This document shows positions 41,171 to 63,016 of a DNA stretch of 64,000 nucleotides, piece after piece. The notes beneath the pieces are model-generated. The model was not told the DNA's origin and did not search any database. It worked only from the letters and a program-made list of their open reading frames with translations. This stretch comes from a phage, in assembly GCA_018175275.1 (NCBI GenBank), contig GCA_018175275.1_4531.1; one strand, written 5' to 3'. Made by a program: the position numbers and the translations under genes. Numbering within the stretch: the stretch's first letter is position 1; the number at the start of each line of letters is the position of its first letter.

Positions 41171-41407
41171 ATGGGTAAACTAATTATGACAGTGGCTATT
41201 GATTTTGATGAAGTAGATGAAAGCCTCAACCTTTCACTTTCTACTGATGTAGAGGGTGAAATGGATAATATTGAAGCAGCTACTGCTCTTTTCTTCAAAA
41301 AAGCTATTGAAGTTTATGCCGAACATGCTGCAAACCAAGCAGTAGACTATGGCGGCATCGTGCGAGCTTTGGTTCACTCTACCGAGAACAATGACTGGGA
41401 AGACTAA
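41171..41407 (+). CDS. hypothetical small protein
   Basis: 78-aa ORF. Confidence 0.35.
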   Translation: MGKLIMTVAIDFDEVDESLNLSLSTDVEGEMDNIEAATALFFKKAIEVYAEHAANQAVDYGGIVRALVHSTENNDWED

Positions 41408-41610
41408 TGGCTTACAATTATTACTGCATTTATGCACATGAAAAGAAAAAAGGTGACACTGGGACTAACGTTTATGCGGAGTCTGAATCTCATGCAAAAG
41501 AGATTGGTGCTATCCTTCTATCACGCTGGACTGGAAATAATTACAGTGCAGAAGATATGTTTGCAGAAGTGGATTCTGGTATCCAAGAAGACAACATAAC
41601 AACTACGTGA
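41407..41610 (+). CDS. hypothetical small protein
   Basis: 67-aa ORF. Confidence 0.35.
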   Translation: MAYNYYCIYAHEKKKGDTGTNVYAESESHAKEIGAILLSRWTGNNYSAEDMFAEVDSGIQEDNITTT

Positions 41611-41618
41611 TATACTTA

Positions 41619-41645
41619 TACTCCCTTCTCGGAGGGAGTATTTTT
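41619..41645 (+). terminator. rho-independent terminator
   Basis: stem TACTCCC/GGGAGTA followed by TTTTT. Confidence 0.5.
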
Positions 41646-41656
41646 AAGGAGGGATT

Positions 41657-41851
41657 ATGCAGAGCGGAGAAGAACTTTTAGAGAAACAATTCTCAACGCG
41701 TCAACAAGCTTTAAGTTATATGGTTTTTCTAAGTAATCTTGATGTGAATGAGATACTTTTACGGCGCGAAGGTAATTTCTGGAGCGTTAAATATCATGCA
41801 ACAAGGTCTGTAATCTACCTGGAAGAGGCGGAATTCTCTTTGGTAGAATGA
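41657..41851 (+). CDS. hypothetical small protein
   Basis: 64-aa ORF with AAGGAGGGA RBS. Confidence 0.35.
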   Translation: MQSGEELLEKQFSTRQQALSYMVFLSNLDVNEILLRREGNFWSVKYHATRSVIYLEEAEFSLVE

Positions 41852-46165: not shown

Positions 46166-46187
46166 AACCCGCTTCGGCGGGTTTTTT
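46166..46187 (+). terminator. rho-independent terminator
   Basis: stem CCCGC/GCGGG with TTCG loop followed by TTTTTT. Confidence 0.55.
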
Positions 46188-50888: not shown

Positions 50889-50908
50889 AAAAAACCCGCC
50901 GAAGCGGG
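50889..50908 (-). terminator. rho-independent terminator (minus strand)
   Basis: minus-strand stem CCCGC/GCGGG with TTCG loop followed by T-run. Confidence 0.45.
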
Positions 50909-50954
50909 TTCTATTGCTACGATAGGATCACTATCCTATAGTATTGTTTCTGTG

Positions 50955-54835: not shown

Positions 54836-55039
54836 TTACTCATTTCTACCTCCTTCAATGCTTTGTGCCGTACCATCCCAAGCCATTAGAATGTTTTCCA
54901 ATAGTTCACGAGGATCTTTAAACCAAACTTCCATTTCATCAAGGATCTCGTCCGTGTCGTAAGTATAACCTGGAACACCAAGTTCACATTTCTTAAGATA
55001 GCTTTCTAACCAGCGGTGATAATTCTTAACCCCATTCAT
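54836..55039 (-). CDS. hypothetical small protein
   Basis: 67-aa ORF. Confidence 0.3.
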   Translation of the reverse strand: MNGVKNYHRWLESYLKKCELGVPGYTYDTDEILDEMEVWFKDPRELLENILMAWDGTAQSIEGGRNE

Positions 55040-55412
55040 ACTGTGCTACCTTTTCTTTTACCCAATCTACACGATCTTTATCATAATGTTGAGTGCCAAG
55101 GAAAAGACCATTGTGGAAACTTTCCTCACCGAAAGGATAAATTGGATCTAAACCATCTTCTTCAAATAACATTTTTAATCTGTTTGATGTAGATTTCTTA
55201 GTTTCTGAATTGTAGTTTGTGGTTATAAGCCAATCTTCCAAACAACGACACAAACCTTGACGAGAATCCCAAGGAAAAACACAATCTCCGACAGGAGCTT
55301 GTTCCGCCCATTTCAACCAGCCTTTAAAAAAGTTATACAGTATGTAGTCTTCAGTGTAATACATTATCTCCTCCTTTACGTATACAATAACACCCCGAAG
55401 AACGGGGTGCAA
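55026..55412 (-). CDS. paralog-family protein A (W-L ... G-L-C ... Y-P-F ... R-V-x-W-V-K/R)
   Basis: shares the conserved motif series with ORFs at 56304-56702, 59739-60065 and 62971-63285; likely start ATG 55364 after AGGAGG. Confidence 0.45.
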   Translation of the reverse strand: MHPVLRGVIVYVKEEIMYYTEDYILYNFFKGWLKWAEQAPVGDCVFPWDSRQGLCRCLEDWLITTNYNSETKKSTSNRLKMLFEEDGLDPIYPFGEESFHNGLFLGTQHYDKDRVDWVKEKVAQYEWG

Positions 55413-55415
55413 CTG

Positions 55416-56027
55416 TTATTTAATCTGTTTGAAAATTTCGTTTGGAACGGTACCGTTTAAAATACCTTCTACGATCTCTTGTGCAGATGTGTAAGAGAGT
55501 CCAAAAGAAGCTACGCCTAAAATTGCCTCCTTCAAAGGATCTGGCAGGGGTTCAAAATTACCTGCAACAAAGCCACCTGCACAAGCAGCGCCTTCATCAT
55601 CCCAGAAAACAACTGCTACATCGTTACCATGCGAAGTTGTGCGATGTGCAATAACTTCAACTTCGGTGCCTTCTTTAGGAACAGAATAAGAACTGTCCCA
55701 AGAATATCTTTCTAAATCAGGAACAAAGATAACCTTTTCACCTACTGGCGGCAGTTCACAACGATAATACCAAGAATTTTTTTCGTTCATTGCTCTATTT
55801 TCCTCCACGTCTTCAAAAGTAACGATCCAATCGTAGCCGTAAGAAAACGGATATTTTAGATCTAAAGAATAAGTTTGACCTAGATCGTCCTCAACAAGAA
55901 CCATCTTGTCAAAGTTTGCGATGTTAGGATTATGTTTAATGACAGGGTATGTTTCCCCTACAGTAAATTGTCCTAAATGGTAAAGTTCATCTCTCCAAGT
56001 AATTTGGATATGAGTGCATTGAATCAT
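55416..56027 (-). CDS. hypothetical protein
   Basis: 203-aa ORF. Confidence 0.4.
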   Translation of the reverse strand: MIQCTHIQITWRDELYHLGQFTVGETYPVIKHNPNIANFDKMVLVEDDLGQTYSLDLKYPFSYGYDWIVTFEDVEENRAMNEKNSWYYRCELPPVGEKVIFVPDLERYSWDSSYSVPKEGTEVEVIAHRTTSHGNDVAVVFWDDEGAACAGGFVAGNFEPLPDPLKEAILGVASFGLSYTSAQEIVEGILNGTVPNEIFKQIK

Positions 56028-56031
56028 AAAA

Positions 56032-56304
56032 TCACCCCCAAGAAATATTTATATATCTTACAATGTTTGCACTGTCTAAAGCCATGTTTGCACCACACCC
56101 ACGCTCGCGCCAGTAACTAACAATACCTTCACAGATACTCTCTTGTATCTTCTTATCACTTGGCATTTCTAGTATAAGACTTGGGTTGTGGATGTTTATG
56201 TTATAATACCCTTCCTCTGCTGCTTGAGCTACCAATTTACTTACTTTTTCAAAGTACGGGGAATTAGTGGCATCTGCCATTGTTTTTAAGGTTTGTCTAT
56301 CCAT
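56032..56304 (-). CDS. hypothetical protein
   Basis: 90-aa ORF. Confidence 0.35.
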   Translation of the reverse strand: MDRQTLKTMADATNSPYFEKVSKLVAQAAEEGYYNINIHNPSLILEMPSDKKIQESICEGIVSYWRERGCGANMALDSANIVRYINISWG

Positions 56305-56702
56305 TATTCTGCCTCATCATAGAAGAAATCCAACTCTTGTTCCAGTTGTTTAACTTGATCCTTAACCCACTGTACACGTTTTTCATTAAACATGCAACGT
56401 TTTTCCTTACACTCTTGCTCAAAAGATTTTGCTGTGTTAAACGGGAAAGTTGTATCTAAACCAGCATTTTCAAAACTGGCTAATTGCATACCATAAACAG
56501 AATATGCTAAAGAATGATCGGCTCGAAATTCATCACTTATATACATACGTAGACCTCGGCATAAGCCAACATCAGCGTAACCACTTTCTCGTGGAAAGAG
56601 ACGGAGGTGTTCTAACCAATTATTATAGAAATCTAAAAGAATCCTCTTACACTTCAAATCAATTGTCATAAAAAGTTTCTCCTTCATCGAACAAGTTGGC
56701 AA
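56304..56702 (-). CDS. paralog-family protein D
   Basis: FYNNWLEH...VGLCRGL...TFPFN...KRVQWVKDQV matches the family pattern; start probably ATG 56669. Confidence 0.45.
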   Translation of the reverse strand: MPTCSMKEKLFMTIDLKCKRILLDFYNNWLEHLRLFPRESGYADVGLCRGLRMYISDEFRADHSLAYSVYGMQLASFENAGLDTTFPFNTAKSFEQECKEKRCMFNEKRVQWVKDQVKQLEQELDFFYDEAE

Positions 56703-57069
56703 GATTGTTCACCGCAATTTGGGTGGAAAGAAGACAACTGTTTGCAGACACATAAGCACGAGCTATTTTGTAAACATAGGCTTTCGTATTACAATTATCT
56801 AGGATCGGAAGACTTTCGTCGATAGCATCTATAACACTAAACATCACATCTAAAACTTTAATGGTGAGTGTTGTATTTGTATCTTCGTAACCTTTTTCAA
56901 TCCGACCTGAATAGAAAGCATAGTCCTCAACAGTTCGTCGTTTAAACTGGCGCATAAAATCGGAACCATCTGTAGCAGAATTGAACAAATTTTCAAAAAA
57001 TACGTCCCATCCGGCAAAAAGGGCTGACAGCATGATTAAGTGATCTATAGATTCATTTTCTTGTTTCAT
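56659..57069 (-). CDS. hypothetical protein
   Basis: 136-aa ORF. Confidence 0.4.
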   Translation of the reverse strand: MKQENESIDHLIMLSALFAGWDVFFENLFNSATDGSDFMRQFKRRTVEDYAFYSGRIEKGYEDTNTTLTIKVLDVMFSVIDAIDESLPILDNCNTKAYVYKIARAYVSANSCLLSTQIAVNNLANLFDEGETFYDN

Positions 57070-57077
57070 ATCCTCTC

Positions 57078-57755
57078 CTATTTAATGTTCAGTCTGGCAC
57101 ACAAACGAGAAACAGTTTTAGCATCCCATTTACCACCACGTGCTGTTGCTATTTTCTTACTATTGAATTTTTCAGCAATAGTTTTGTAAGGTGTATTTAA
57201 ATCTCTAAGGATCTCCAAGCGTTCACGGAATGTCTCTGCAAAAGCGTCTGCTTTAACAGAGTTGTATTCCATTTTTCCTTTTCTACGTGCAGCGGCAGTT
57301 TTAGGATTAGCACTGCCTAATAAAACACCTTTGCTTTTTGCTACAGCAAGCCCCTTTTTAATACGATCAGCAATACCTCTAACTTCTTGTTCAGCCAGAA
57401 CAGACAGAAGCTGTATAACCATTTTATCTGCGTCTGGCATGATGGCTATCTTAACATCAATCATTTCTAGAAGAGTTGCTACGGAGGCGTTGTTACGACC
57501 CAAGCGGTCAACTTTAGCTACCAATAAAGTTGCTCCGGTAGCTTTACACATTTCAACCGCTTTAACCAGTTCCTTACGTTGCTTCCAATCGCCCTTACCC
57601 GAATAGTATTCAGAAAATTGACCAATAACTTCCGCATCAGGCACAGAGTCTAAGAAGTAACGGATATCATTCTCTTGGCTCTCCATACCATATTGTGCCT
57701 CACCTTTTTTCTGTTTAGAAAGACGACTGTAAACAACAAACTTTTTCATAACCAC
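57078..57755 (-). CDS. serine recombinase (resolvase/invertase family)
   Basis: 225 aa; N-terminal VVYSRLSKQ (catalytic Ser context), VAKVDRLGRN motif, C-terminal HTH-like segment. Confidence 0.55.
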   Translation of the reverse strand: MVMKKFVVYSRLSKQKKGEAQYGMESQENDIRYFLDSVPDAEVIGQFSEYYSGKGDWKQRKELVKAVEMCKATGATLLVAKVDRLGRNNASVATLLEMIDVKIAIMPDADKMVIQLLSVLAEQEVRGIADRIKKGLAVAKSKGVLLGSANPKTAAARRKGKMEYNSVKADAFAETFRERLEILRDLNTPYKTIAEKFNSKKIATARGGKWDAKTVSRLCARLNIK

Positions 57756-57819
57756 TCCTAAACCATTGCTGTATTCTCACTTTACAAAACGAATAAACAC
57801 TTGTCAAGGTATTTATTAT

Positions 57820-58032
57820 TTACAGCCATTCTACTCTTAAGCAGTATTCCTCGACATGTTGTTTACGCTTGTTTTTGTCTATGTAAGTGTATTCAACAAA
57901 TGTCCCAAGATAGTCCTTGTCTACATTGTGTGGGCTATTGATTGGACATTTAGTACGACAAACCCGTTGCCACTGACGAAGAATTACGGCTTTGTTTTTA
58001 GGATCAAAGGGATGAGGGTAATGTACCTTCAT
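57820..58032 (-). CDS. hypothetical small protein
   Basis: 70-aa ORF. Confidence 0.3.
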   Translation of the reverse strand: MKVHYPHPFDPKNKAVILRQWQRVCRTKCPINSPHNVDKDYLGTFVEYTYIDKNKRKQHVEEYCLRVEWL

Positions 58033-58356
58033 TCACGCCTCCTGTTTTAGTCGAAAAATATTTTGAATAACTAGAGATGTATAGTTATCACTTAGTCCCA
58101 TAAGTTCTACTTCCAAGTTTCGAATATCTTCCACCGTAGGAGGATATGTTGGTAAAAATGCTTGAGCATTGCCAGATCCAACCTCATTGCTGTAAGCAGT
58201 TGTAAAATTGTAAGATACAAAACATGAAACACCTTTTTGTCGGTACCCGATTAATCGACGAATACACCAGATAAGAGCCAAACCTATGAGAACACCTCCT
58301 AAACCAGCTAACAAGAAGGATAAGTTCATAATAGCTTCGTTAACAACTGCTTGCAT
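58033..58356 (-). CDS. hypothetical membrane protein
   Basis: 107 aa; hydrophobic segment LSFLLAGLGGVLIGLALIWCI. Confidence 0.4.
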   Translation of the reverse strand: MQAVVNEAIMNLSFLLAGLGGVLIGLALIWCIRRLIGYRQKGVSCFVSYNFTTAYSNEVGSGNAQAFLPTYPPTVEDIRNLEVELMGLSDNYTSLVIQNIFRLKQEA

Positions 58357-58366
58357 TCTTTTCTCC

Positions 58367-58714
58367 TTAGTTGTGTAAACCCAAATGTGCTACAACTTCT
58401 CTACGATAAGATAACTGCATAGCGATTTTATAGCCAGGATGAAAACCATTTACATCAATGTCATCAAACCAAACCTCAAATGAACCGTGTTTAAGAGTCA
58501 TTAAGTTAATATACCATTCAATAGTATAATGATCGTTAGCAATACCTTCGATGTAAAATTCTCGACAACAGTGAGATAAATCTTCACTTGTTTCACGTTT
58601 CCAGTCTTTGATAGCACCCTTCTCTTTGGCTTTATTCAGAATGTGGATCAGGTCTTCAACTTGCATATTCTCTCCTTTAGTTCCAACTAATAATAATGTG
58701 TTTGATAATCCCAA
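58367..58714 (-). CDS. hypothetical protein
   Basis: 115-aa ORF. Confidence 0.4.
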   Translation of the reverse strand: MGLSNTLLLVGTKGENMQVEDLIHILNKAKEKGAIKDWKRETSEDLSHCCREFYIEGIANDHYTIEWYINLMTLKHGSFEVWFDDIDVNGFHPGYKIAMQLSYRREVVAHLGLHN

Positions 58715-59231
58715 AAATACTGTGCTCTGCGGTTGCCAATGTTACATCCAAACCTTTTGCACGTAGCATTGTAGCTACAACATTTGCCCCTCTTTTCTGT
58801 TCACTTATCTGTTCATAAGAAGAAGGGTTATTGCACAAACCAAAACTGGAAGGTTCAAAGTATTTTTCAAACTTCCCTTGTTCCGCACAATCTTCAATCT
58901 CTAATAGAACGGCGTCTACCATTTCAGTAAAATGGGAATTTGCTTGCAGTGCTTTATTACGCAGTTTATCACGTAAACTTCCCGTAGATTCTTCCTGCTC
59001 TTCTGTCTGTCCATCTTCACAGAAAGGATGAAGTTCAGCCCAGTCCCAAGCATCTCCTTCTAAAGCAAATGGAGTGTTGTAATTGAAGAAAGTGCAGCGC
59101 GGATATTCCCCGTTGAAAGAATCTTTCAGCAGAATATATTTCTTACCGTTTGCATGGAAGAGTTCTCCTTTGATAACCTTACCTACAAGGATATCACTGT
59201 TAGTGGAACGGGTGCAAATAAATTTTTTCAT
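58677..59231 (-). CDS. hypothetical protein
   Basis: 184-aa ORF. Confidence 0.4.
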   Translation of the reverse strand: MKKFICTRSTNSDILVGKVIKGELFHANGKKYILLKDSFNGEYPRCTFFNYNTPFALEGDAWDWAELHPFCEDGQTEEQEESTGSLRDKLRNKALQANSHFTEMVDAVLLEIEDCAEQGKFEKYFEPSSFGLCNNPSSYEQISEQKRGANVVATMLRAKGLDVTLATAEHSIFGIIKHIIISWN

Positions 59232-59515: not shown

Positions 59516-59739
59516 TCTTCCATCTCAAACCATTCAGGGAACACTTTGCGGAAGACCCGCGTGTTTTCTAAGAGAAATTCCAACTCTTTTTCCAAATCTG
59601 CGTTCCAACCGTTTATTTTAACACGGATTGCCAATGCACTTGCACGGCGACTCAATTCTTGACAGATTGGATCACGCAGAACTATTGAGTCATAAAACTG
59701 ACAAACAGCCTCAAGTTCATACCAGTTATAATCCGACAT
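59512..59739 (-). CDS. hypothetical small protein
   Basis: 75-aa ORF. Confidence 0.3.
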   Translation of the reverse strand: MSDYNWYELEAVCQFYDSIVLRDPICQELSRRASALAIRVKINGWNADLEKELEFLLENTRVFRKVFPEWFEMEE

Positions 59740-60065
59740 TATTCATCCTCCTCTGCAATACGATCTCTTACCCAATTAATCCTGTCCACGTTCAGGTGAC
59801 ATACCTCTGCATCTGATTCTAAGACATATGCATCGTAGTTCTCATTGAAAGGGAGTGCTTGACTCAACCCTTTGTGGTAAAACTGTGCGTGCATTTCATC
59901 TGACAAGGTTGTTATAAGGGGATTGTAATTACCTCTGTGCACATAATCGAACAAGTTGGCACACAAACCACAATCCCGCCGAAAAGGTTTACCATCAGGA
60001 GCACCAACATCAATCCATGCTAGATAAATTTTATAAAACTCCATCAACCTTGTGCTTGTTTTCAT
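59739..60065 (-). CDS. paralog-family protein B
   Basis: FYKIYLAWIDVGAPDG...CGLCANL...ALPFNENYD...DRINWVRDRI matches the family pattern. Confidence 0.45.
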   Translation of the reverse strand: MKTSTRLMEFYKIYLAWIDVGAPDGKPFRRDCGLCANLFDYVHRGNYNPLITTLSDEMHAQFYHKGLSQALPFNENYDAYVLESDAEVCHLNVDRINWVRDRIAEEDE

Positions 60066-62779: not shown

Positions 62780-63016
62780 TTATTTATCTTGCTTGTATCT
62801 TACAAGGCGATCACACTCCAGGTCAAGAAATTTCTCCGCATTTCGTTCATGTTTGAGCACAATACATTGTTCTTTCCAGTCTGTAGCTCTTTGCTGCGCT
62901 GCTCCTGGGTCAAAATCCCAAAGCCATGCCGCGAAAAGAACAACCATAACAATTACCAAGAAACTAAACACTATTGGCATTGCACATCCTCCTGTGTAGC
63001 ATGATCTTTTACCCAT
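62780..63016 (-). CDS. hypothetical small membrane protein
   Basis: 78 aa; hydrophobic segment PIVFSFLVIVMVVLFAAWLW. Confidence 0.35.
   Translation of the reverse strand: MGKRSCYTGGCAMPIVFSFLVIVMVVLFAAWLWDFDPGAAQQRATDWKEQCIVLKHERNAEKFLDLECDRLVRYKQDK

Follow-up and report, generated by a model that had tools for sequence, protein, structure and literature searches.

A short serine recombinase behind a conserved promoter in phAPEC8-like phages: classification, distribution and possible role

We describe a small serine recombinase encoded in a 64,000-nucleotide stretch of phage DNA (contig GCA_018175275.1_4531.1 of GenBank assembly GCA_018175275.1), the whole of which is called the window below. 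The window comes from a phAPEC8-like Phapecoctavirus (Stephanstirmvirinae), an Escherichia coli myovirus of ~150 kb described as lytic. Its best match is 536P1, and ~65 records of phAPEC8-like Phapecoctavirus match it at 95-99.5% identity. The recombinase gene is intact, is under purifying selection and follows a promoter that recurs in diverged phages. The comparisons given below revealed neither inversion nor integration. If a single job has to be named, resolvase-type recombination between direct repeats of one site on the phage's replicating DNA is our best candidate, and a tentative one.

The recombinase and its gene

The gene was pointed out in an earlier note, made from the sequence alone, as an open reading frame (ORF) of 225 amino acids counted from a GTG codon (57078-57755, minus strand). 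This ORF exists and includes both motifs quoted in the note, YSRLSKQ (residues 7-13) and VDRLGRN (residues 80-86, in the numbering of the 223-residue protein). The GTG (57755-57753) is the start used by the mechanical ORF call. It is overlapped by a Shine-Dalgarno sequence, AGGAG (57755-57759, minus strand), which was read directly and lies 5 nt upstream of an ATG at 57749. Since relatives also annotate the coding sequence (CDS) as 672 nt, the true start is almost certainly this ATG. The CDS would then occupy 57078-57749 (minus strand, stop codon at 57078-57080) and encode 223 amino acids. The base composition of the gene is unremarkable.

The Pfam Resolvase catalytic domain (PF00239) is recognised far beyond chance (E=5e-18, 65.9 bits against a cut-off of 23.3), and PHROG 125 matches residues 2-224 (E=1e-32). 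Nine residues (Y7, R9, S11, Q25, R58, D81, R82, R85 and E122) are invariant in an alignment of 38 homologs reaching down to 32% identity. Five of these (R9, S11, D81, R82 and R85) correspond to the gamma-delta constellation R8, S10, D67, R68 and R71. The invariant residues make up the full serine-recombinase active site. The protein is a bona fide serine recombinase, predicted to be catalytically competent. An AlphaFold (AF2) model, which is confident (pLDDT, the predicted local distance difference test, is 90), has the serine-recombinase fold. It includes a catalytic domain with a beta-alpha-beta core (about residues 2-101), a long alpha-E helix of 31 residues (109-139) and a C-terminal DNA-binding domain of four helices (149-219).

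In a profile search of PDB sequences, alignments that extend through the C-terminal domain were obtained with large serine recombinases only. A Pfam census of the 38 members, with a threshold of E<=0.01 for PF07508 in the relatives, identified PF07508 (Recombinase) in 25, HTH_62 ('recombinase-like HTH') in 11 and HTH_7, the HTH of resolvases and invertases, in none. The window protein itself scores 18.2 bits with PF07508 (cut-off 21.1), covering just profile positions 19-48 of 102. We therefore assign the C-terminal domain, from these profiles, to the first helix-turn-helix (HTH) part of the large-serine-recombinase domain (PF07508/HTH_62) and not to HTH_7. The earlier note had called the protein 'resolvase/invertase type'. 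It is not of this classical type, the HTH being of the large-serine-recombinase kind. The note was also right that the protein is small, intact and not of integrase size. It ends at residue 223 directly after the HTH, with neither zinc ribbon nor coiled coil, and in effect represents the first ~45% of a large serine recombinase without these two parts. The N-terminal MerR-like HTH of IS607-type enzymes is absent: the protein begins with the catalytic domain (from residue 2) and has its DNA-binding domain at the C-terminus.

These features (~215-235 amino acids, a catalytic domain, alpha-E and a single recombinase-like HTH with RGGxW) are those of a short subfamily. On this basis the protein is classified in the stand-alone 'Resolvase + LSR-type HTH' group (PHROG 125; PF00239 plus PF07508/PF20552), where LSR stands for large serine recombinase. 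By the same domain comparison it would not be an invertase, a classical resolvase, a large serine integrase or an IS607 transposase, the defining features of each being missing. Among the curated NCBIfam models none approaches its cut-off, and PADLOC gave no match. Our literature search found no experimentally characterised member of the subfamily.

The longest structural and profile alignments are those with large serine recombinases. The protein is collinear with the first ~245 residues of Bxb1 Int, SPbeta SprA and PhiC31 Int, including the first HTH (IAxxLNxxGxxTxRGGxW). These enzymes have 450-700 amino acids compared with 223. The remainder of their recombinase domain, the zinc ribbon and the coiled coil, all absent here, control synapsis and directionality. 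Also, in contrast to these systems, the phage has no attP and no prophage state. With the Tn3/gamma-delta, Sin and beta enzymes the recombinase shares the catalytic fold, the Ser/Arg/Asp residues, the long alpha-E and a size of ~200 amino acids. The presumed reaction, resolution of direct repeats, would also be shared, and relatives of the recombinase occur in plasmid maintenance regions. However, the sequence similarity is weak (phmmer E~3e-6) and the HTH_7 of these enzymes is not found in the recombinase. In addition, the recombinase has no adjacent multi-subsite res and occurs in a lytic phage, whereas the Tn3/gamma-delta type belongs to transposons or plasmids.

Every one of the ~65 close relatives has the gene, and a frameshifted copy is seen only in the records of Schickermooser; the protein is >=99% identical in 63 records. 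Two close relatives show ~9% synonymous differences in the gene (pS=0.088) and no nonsynonymous difference. The ratio of nonsynonymous to synonymous change (dN/dS) is 0.16 compared with phiWec188 and 0.21 compared with a Klebsiella phage. By every sequence criterion the recombinase is functional in the phage. One role proposed in the earlier note, that of a decaying remnant of a mobile element, is not supported, given a dN/dS of 0 to 0.2 and the presence of the gene in all ~65 close relatives.

In Schickermooser (MK373788) the region equivalent to 57515-57714, which lies in the catalytic domain, carries ~19 deletions of 1-5 nt within 200 bp. There are hardly any substitutions, and the surrounding 5 kb shows only scattered gaps. 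This copy may reflect real inactivation (a pseudogene), a local problem of sequence quality or assembly, or heterogeneity. If the disruption is real, the gene would be dispensable in culture.

Promoter, genomic loci and relatives

A sigma70-type promoter, TTGACA-N17-TAAAGT (57779-57807, minus strand; 10/12 matches in the promoter scan), lies 30-58 bp before the ATG of the recombinase. A single match of this type means little because the scan as a whole is not enriched over shuffled sequence (40 sites compared with 37.9 expected). A TTGAC(A/T)-N16-18 promoter is also located directly upstream of the homolog in phiWec188 (where it lies within the upstream CDS), phi92, the Klebsiella phage, Shewanella phage 1/40 and ICP1. 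Together with the window, this makes six diverged phage lineages in which a sigma70 promoter before the gene has been kept. Such recurrence points to selection on very early expression driven by the host polymerase. It suggests that the recombinase would be the first gene of a transcription unit expressed very early in infection.

The promoter and the gene occupy two different loci within the Stephanstirmvirinae. Both phi92 and the Klebsiella phage are collinear with window positions 38-45 kb (tblastn synteny), a segment with genes for an HslV-like peptidase, a methyltransferase, a phosphatase and a DprA-like protein. The sole difference is an inserted promoter plus recombinase, between the homologs of 41407-41610 and 41657-41851. 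Shewanella phage 1/40 has the same order, HslV ... recombinase ... DprA. The 'empty' counterpart in the window (41611-41656, plus strand) contains only a terminator hairpin and a ribosome-binding site, and the window recombinase lies 15 kb away on the opposite strand. Its presence at different loci with its own promoter indicates that the cassette was relocated as a unit, and with nothing besides: the small gene which follows the recombinase in phi92-like phages remained at the old locus.

Relatives of the recombinase occur in >550 IMG/VR viral loci. The metagenomic phage contigs sampled have it within small-gene arrays, following a T7-type RNA polymerase gene, or adjoining YqaJ exonuclease/RecT. 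Distant members are found in elements with a separate integrase (for example, an integrative island with its own tyrosine integrase) or in replication and recombination modules with YqaJ exonuclease and RecT. Full-length homologs of 34-40% identity are carried by 124 plasmids, 104 of them non-mobilizable and many of only 5-7 kb. These homologs adjoin rep and par genes, so that the closest non-phage relatives of the recombinase lie in the maintenance cores of small plasmids. In Paracoccus pLM20P5 and Marinovum pMaD11 the module has the same short architecture, similar over its full length (34-40% identity), and stands alone beside rep/par. The authors of pLM20P5 label it a multimer-resolution module from in silico analysis only (PMC4447125). 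Plasmids of this type differ from the phage in having long non-coding DNA or dyads upstream, and their function, too, is predicted in silico.

In the chromosome of Aeromonas sp. 55A (our locus L007, 8001-10218) a short recombinase of 42% identity is convergent with a large serine recombinase of 501 amino acids, at the edge of a P4-like island carrying a DUF5906 primase. A partnership between the two neighbours was considered and rejected, as they share only ~25% identity.

The movement between loci raises the possibility of a self-propagating cassette: a selfish promoter plus recombinase which spreads among phages, plasmids and islands, either through its own activity or as a hitch-hiker, with little or no benefit to the phage. 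We consider this rather improbable. Its attraction lies in the two loci, with the ancestral-type locus empty in the window, and in the wide distribution of the family, which extends to phages, plasmids and islands alike. ICP1 has the gene in a variable block only, and one homolog adjoins a CapR/DUF723 homing-endonuclease-like gene. On the other hand, there are no terminal repeats or conserved ends, the base composition is not unusual, and a single locus is used in all ~65 close relatives under strong purifying selection. Moreover, the identity of the recombinase between genera (57%) falls within the range of the vertically inherited flanking genes and old neighbours (31-85%).

Candidate sites and reactions

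The reading that we tentatively prefer, recombination on the phage's own DNA, would operate as follows. Host RNA polymerase would transcribe the recombinase gene from its dedicated sigma70 promoter immediately upon infection, and the enzyme would recombine directly repeated copies of a single site on phage DNA. Genome units would be turned into circles or monomers at an early stage of replication, as in plasmid multimer resolution or P1 Cre-lox. Expression would stop with the shut-off of host-type transcription, letting concatemers accumulate for packaging. Confinement to the early phase would make sense because circles or monomers are useful early while concatemers are needed late. A single site per genome would also explain why no repeat pair is seen in the genome. 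The P1 comparison is a functional analogy only. Cre is a phage-encoded site-specific recombinase which circularises terminally redundant DNA and resolves dimers, but it is a tyrosine recombinase of an unrelated family. P1 is temperate and plasmid-maintained with lox adjoining cre, whereas no site was found adjoining the phage recombinase gene.

Resolution of replication products was among the roles listed in the earlier note and is the most plausible of those suggested there, although no site for it was found. The invariant catalytic constellation, the confident model, the purifying selection, the retention of the gene in ~65 relatives, the conserved sigma70 promoter and the plasmid homologs all speak for it, as does the occurrence of distant members alongside a separate integrase or within replication and recombination modules. 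Direct-repeat recombination in particular is chosen because it fits the plasmid relatives.

A number of points weigh against this proposal. No recombination site was identified for the recombinase, and a comparison of its two loci shows no common non-coding motif that accompanies the gene. Upstream of the gene there are just 65 bp of intergenic DNA, taken up by the promoter. Classical resolvases require a supercoiled substrate and a multi-subsite res, and there is no room for such a res next to the gene. An adjacent res with several dimer-binding subsites overlapping the promoter was sought in these 65 bp and was not found. Phages that package from concatemers would have no obvious need for monomerisation, and the resolution role of the plasmid homologs is itself a prediction. 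Finally, the gene appears to be disrupted in a viable isolate (Schickermooser) and is variably present in ICP1, which implies that the function is accessory.

The only dyad near the promoter is equally unhelpful to the proposal. An imperfect 12-2-12 dyad, AATAAATACCTT-GA-CAAGTGTTTATT (57792-57817), overlaps the -35 box and was rejected as a crossover or operator site. The window has just one copy of it, matches arise in 26% of shuffles as well, and its spacer is not conserved in phiWec188. A uniform shuffle-controlled dyad test gave p=0.67 for the window and p=0.68 for phi92. Nominal significance was reached at a few loci (Klebsiella phage, p=0.02; an island, p=0.01), with Shewanella phage at p=0.07. 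Some plasmid homologs have long even-spaced dyads just upstream which are not significant in the same test.

These nominal values at promoter-proximal dyads would suit a domesticated DNA-binding regulator, that is, a site-specific repressor or architectural protein of early transcription in which recombination is vestigial. Resolvases commonly autoregulate, and comparative genomics shows no recombination products. Nevertheless, we think such a role quite improbable: every catalytic residue is invariant, which is not expected of a pure DNA binder, and the promoter dyad in the window is at chance level.

A further candidate site was examined in the genome of a relative, NC_052654. It consists of four dyad-symmetric 21-bp repeats of consensus AAATGAGAAT-N-ATTCTCATTT, 29 bp apart (our locus L017, 17082-17412; NC_052654 ~135.08-135.41 kb). 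These iterons are followed by AT-rich direct repeats, all within a 1.2-kb non-coding gap. They were rejected as a res site because the odd-length dyads and the AT-rich tract look like an origin of the lambda type, and the array is a probable lambda-ori-like replication origin.

The earlier note also proposed that the enzyme inverts a promoter or gene segment and recommended a search of the flanks for inverted crossover sites. No meaningful inverted repeats are present in the 50-64 kb region, where all local inverted and direct repeats are weak and at chance level. In a whole-genome composite, built from the window and the remaining part of NC_052654, palindromic terminators (46166-46187 and 50889-50910) account for all inverted matches of >=20 bp. 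Very short or degenerate sites could escape scans of this type. No convincing inverted pair was seen near the gene in 80 diverse IMG/VR viral loci with relatives.

Orientation was compared by megablast against all phage records, using window segments 1-22, 22-40 and 40-64 kb and the 1-25 and 25-50 kb segments of the relative. Every scorable segment is collinear in 48-64 relatives, with one matching place in each, and no orientation polymorphism is seen among the relatives. Two parts of the relative's record, 50-56 kb and 143-151.7 kb (~16 kb), lie outside this comparison, and the hypervariable early region cannot be scored. Extra matching places, for which strands are not listed, occur mainly where a match reaches the end of a record and in the WPEC assemblies (see below). 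A tail-fibre switch like that of the Mu G segment was rejected: there is a single U-like assembly gene, one strand is used throughout and 64 relatives are collinear.

A DNA invertase flipping a promoter or gene segment, the leading idea of the earlier note, is thus very unlikely. Its support comes from names: PHROG 125 is labelled 'DNA invertase' and some GenBank records say gin or DNA invertase. Hin, Gin, Cin and Pin are likewise small serine recombinases and phage-borne. However, their HTH_7, paired inverted sites, invertible tail-fibre segment and orientation variants are all missing from this phage, and the NCBIfam master-invertase (Mpi) model scores only 22.6 bits against a cut-off of 272.

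Equally, an integrase giving lysogeny or a plasmid-like carrier state is extremely unlikely. Small temperate phages (Staphylococcus StB27 and a Bacteroides phage) do annotate distant homologs of 25-31% identity in this way. A sensitive blastn search with 56000-59000, however, gave no match in 5,426 complete E. coli genomes. The plasmid homologs do not exceed 40% identity, and the top matches shown are bacterial plasmids rather than phage copies. The recombinase also lacks zinc ribbon, coiled coil and repressor module, and published descriptions report lytic behaviour (PMC10282059, PMC10269720).

The failure to detect a site in the phage, and the fact that no cis site travels with the gene, would be expected if the early recombinase acted in trans as a weapon or takeover factor against satellites, prophages or the host chromosome instead of phage DNA. 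Its integrase-like HTH would bind foreign sites, and the enzyme would then recombine them, break them or poison their recombination. This reading, the main rival of the preferred one and in our view unlikely, draws on the large-serine-recombinase type of DNA-binding domain and the apparent immediate-early expression. The gene is also accessory, relocatable and variably present, as are counter-defence genes. Odn-like anti-satellite nucleases are reported from phages in both genera that bear the recombinase, namely Mt1B1_P17 and, presumably, Inny and Muut. There are 224 putative E. coli satellites, some with a serine recombinase (PMC10055350), and ICP1 Adi provides a precedent for a phage subverting the large serine recombinase of a satellite (PMC9638900). 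The Aeromonas family member lies beside a large serine recombinase in a P4-like island. Clearly, the argument is purely circumstantial. Adi, examined as a possible homolog and rejected, is an unrelated small protein (Gp97.1), and the Aeromonas pair is only ~25% identical. No PADLOC or other defence-related family matches. A near-identical protein in ~63 phages from many hosts is at odds with a fast arms race, and homologs on tiny plasmids need no such explanation.

A more specific version is doubtful. In this, the recombinase would recognise att-type sites of serine-integrase satellites or prophages, or form mixed complexes with their integrases, wrecking or hijacking excision and replication. 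In a weaker variant, it would cause small-gene cassettes to be shuffled within the adjacent hypervariable early region. This region (NC_052654 118-143 kb, our L017 1-25000) lies just beyond the right end of the window, and no relative covers >=80% of it in one place compared with 48-64 relatives for the other segments.

The hypervariable region is an array of small genes, each following a spacer of ~85 bp which holds a conserved -10 box and a GC hairpin (reverse complement TAATATTTACCACGTAGGGCGGCAATGGTGCCGCTCAC). The array brings to mind the PeSL (promoter-stem-loop) cassettes that are shuffled in T4-type phages. A connection of these promoter-plus-hairpin repeats with the recombinase was considered but is not supported, since the repeats also occur in rV5-/Seunavirus-like phages outside the recombinase hits. 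The hairpins show paired changes of arm length, typical of an RNA or structural element.

Annotation, neighbouring genes and related records

GenBank already includes the gene for phi92, as gp053, and for many relatives, but its name varies between records: serine recombinase, resolvase, DNA invertase, integrase or hypothetical protein. MT496970, OR062529 and others list it under 'methionine ABC transporter ATP-binding protein' or 'hypothetical protein'. According to one paper, no recombinase is encoded by ESCO5 and ESCO37, although both carry the gene. Another guesses that the recombinase 'keeps concatemers as single genomes' (PMC10282059). The literature searched includes only such annotation-level guesses and no functional or experimental study of the gene.

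This has practical consequences. Phapecoctavirus and phi92-like phages are popular candidates for phage therapy, and safety screens flag the words 'recombinase' and 'integrase'. Once the enzyme is shown to be something other than an integrase or a tail-fibre invertase, such an alarm proves false. More generally, hundreds of virulent-looking phages carry a short large-serine-recombinase-like enzyme behind an early promoter. The role of small serine recombinases in strictly lytic phages is a real and experimentally tractable question. Discovery of the substrate would reveal either an overlooked step of DNA replication in lytic phages or a new form of warfare between elements, and the protein could yield a very compact enzyme for genome engineering.

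The window starts with the terminase, portal and head genes and nine tRNAs (1-13 kb, minus strand), followed by genes of nucleotide and DNA metabolism (13-50 kb, plus strand). A block of small genes of unknown function, including the recombinase, occupies 50.3-64 kb (minus strand). The recombinase is the sole protein of this block with a recognisable domain. As the earlier note had it, the gene sits among small minus-strand genes in an early-looking block, far from the tail fibres. The tail-fibre genes are outside the window, at 25.9-50 kb of NC_052654 compared with 111.8 kb for the recombinase, a distance of ~60 kb on the map of this relative.

Four tightly packed ORFs follow the recombinase in the ORF list (56659-57069, 56304-56702, 56032-56304 and 55416-56027, minus strand) and, from their spacing alone, are probably co-transcribed with it as an operon. 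They belong to PHROGs 25865, 2510, 24570 and 7798, all labelled 'unknown function', and have no Pfam match. The terminator scan identified a terminator-like hairpin at 55390-55410 (minus strand; 8-bp stem with 6 GC pairs) which may end the transcription unit of the recombinase. The genes on either side were considered as functional partners and set aside, none of them having an assigned function.

Just upstream of the recombinase promoter, a gene of 70 amino acids (57820-58032, minus strand) encodes a full-length DUF7202 protein (Pfam E=2e-37). In phiWec188 a DUF7202 homolog of 48% identity is also located upstream of the recombinase, with one extra gene in between. The same block includes paralogous small early proteins (55026-55412, 56304-56702, 59739-60065 and ~62780-63016, minus strand). 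Of these, at least the first two belong to PHROG 2510, and a C-terminal motif, R(V/I)xWV(K/R), is common to the copies.

The perfectly palindromic terminator, AACCCGCTTCGGCGGGTT plus a T-run, is found at 46166-46187 and 50889-50910, with a third copy elsewhere in the genome. The copy at 46.2 kb lies immediately before a TTGACA promoter.

Among the relatives, the records of WPEC2, WPEC4 and WPEC1 (PV691511, PV682947 and PV659873; 155-161 kb) have 5-7, and up to 9, places matching window positions 40001-64000, in contrast to the one matching place of the others. These records are duplicated, rearranged or misassembled.

The DNA of 'Campylobacter phage' B15 (MG065650), whose label names Campylobacter jejuni as the host, matches the window at ~97% identity. 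This record and those of A150 (MG065639) and A110a (MG065689) all carry the recombinase, with an identity typical of E. coli Phapecoctavirus for B15 and of phi92-like phages for A150 and A110a. The 'Campylobacter' label of the three is likely to result from host mislabelling or contamination.

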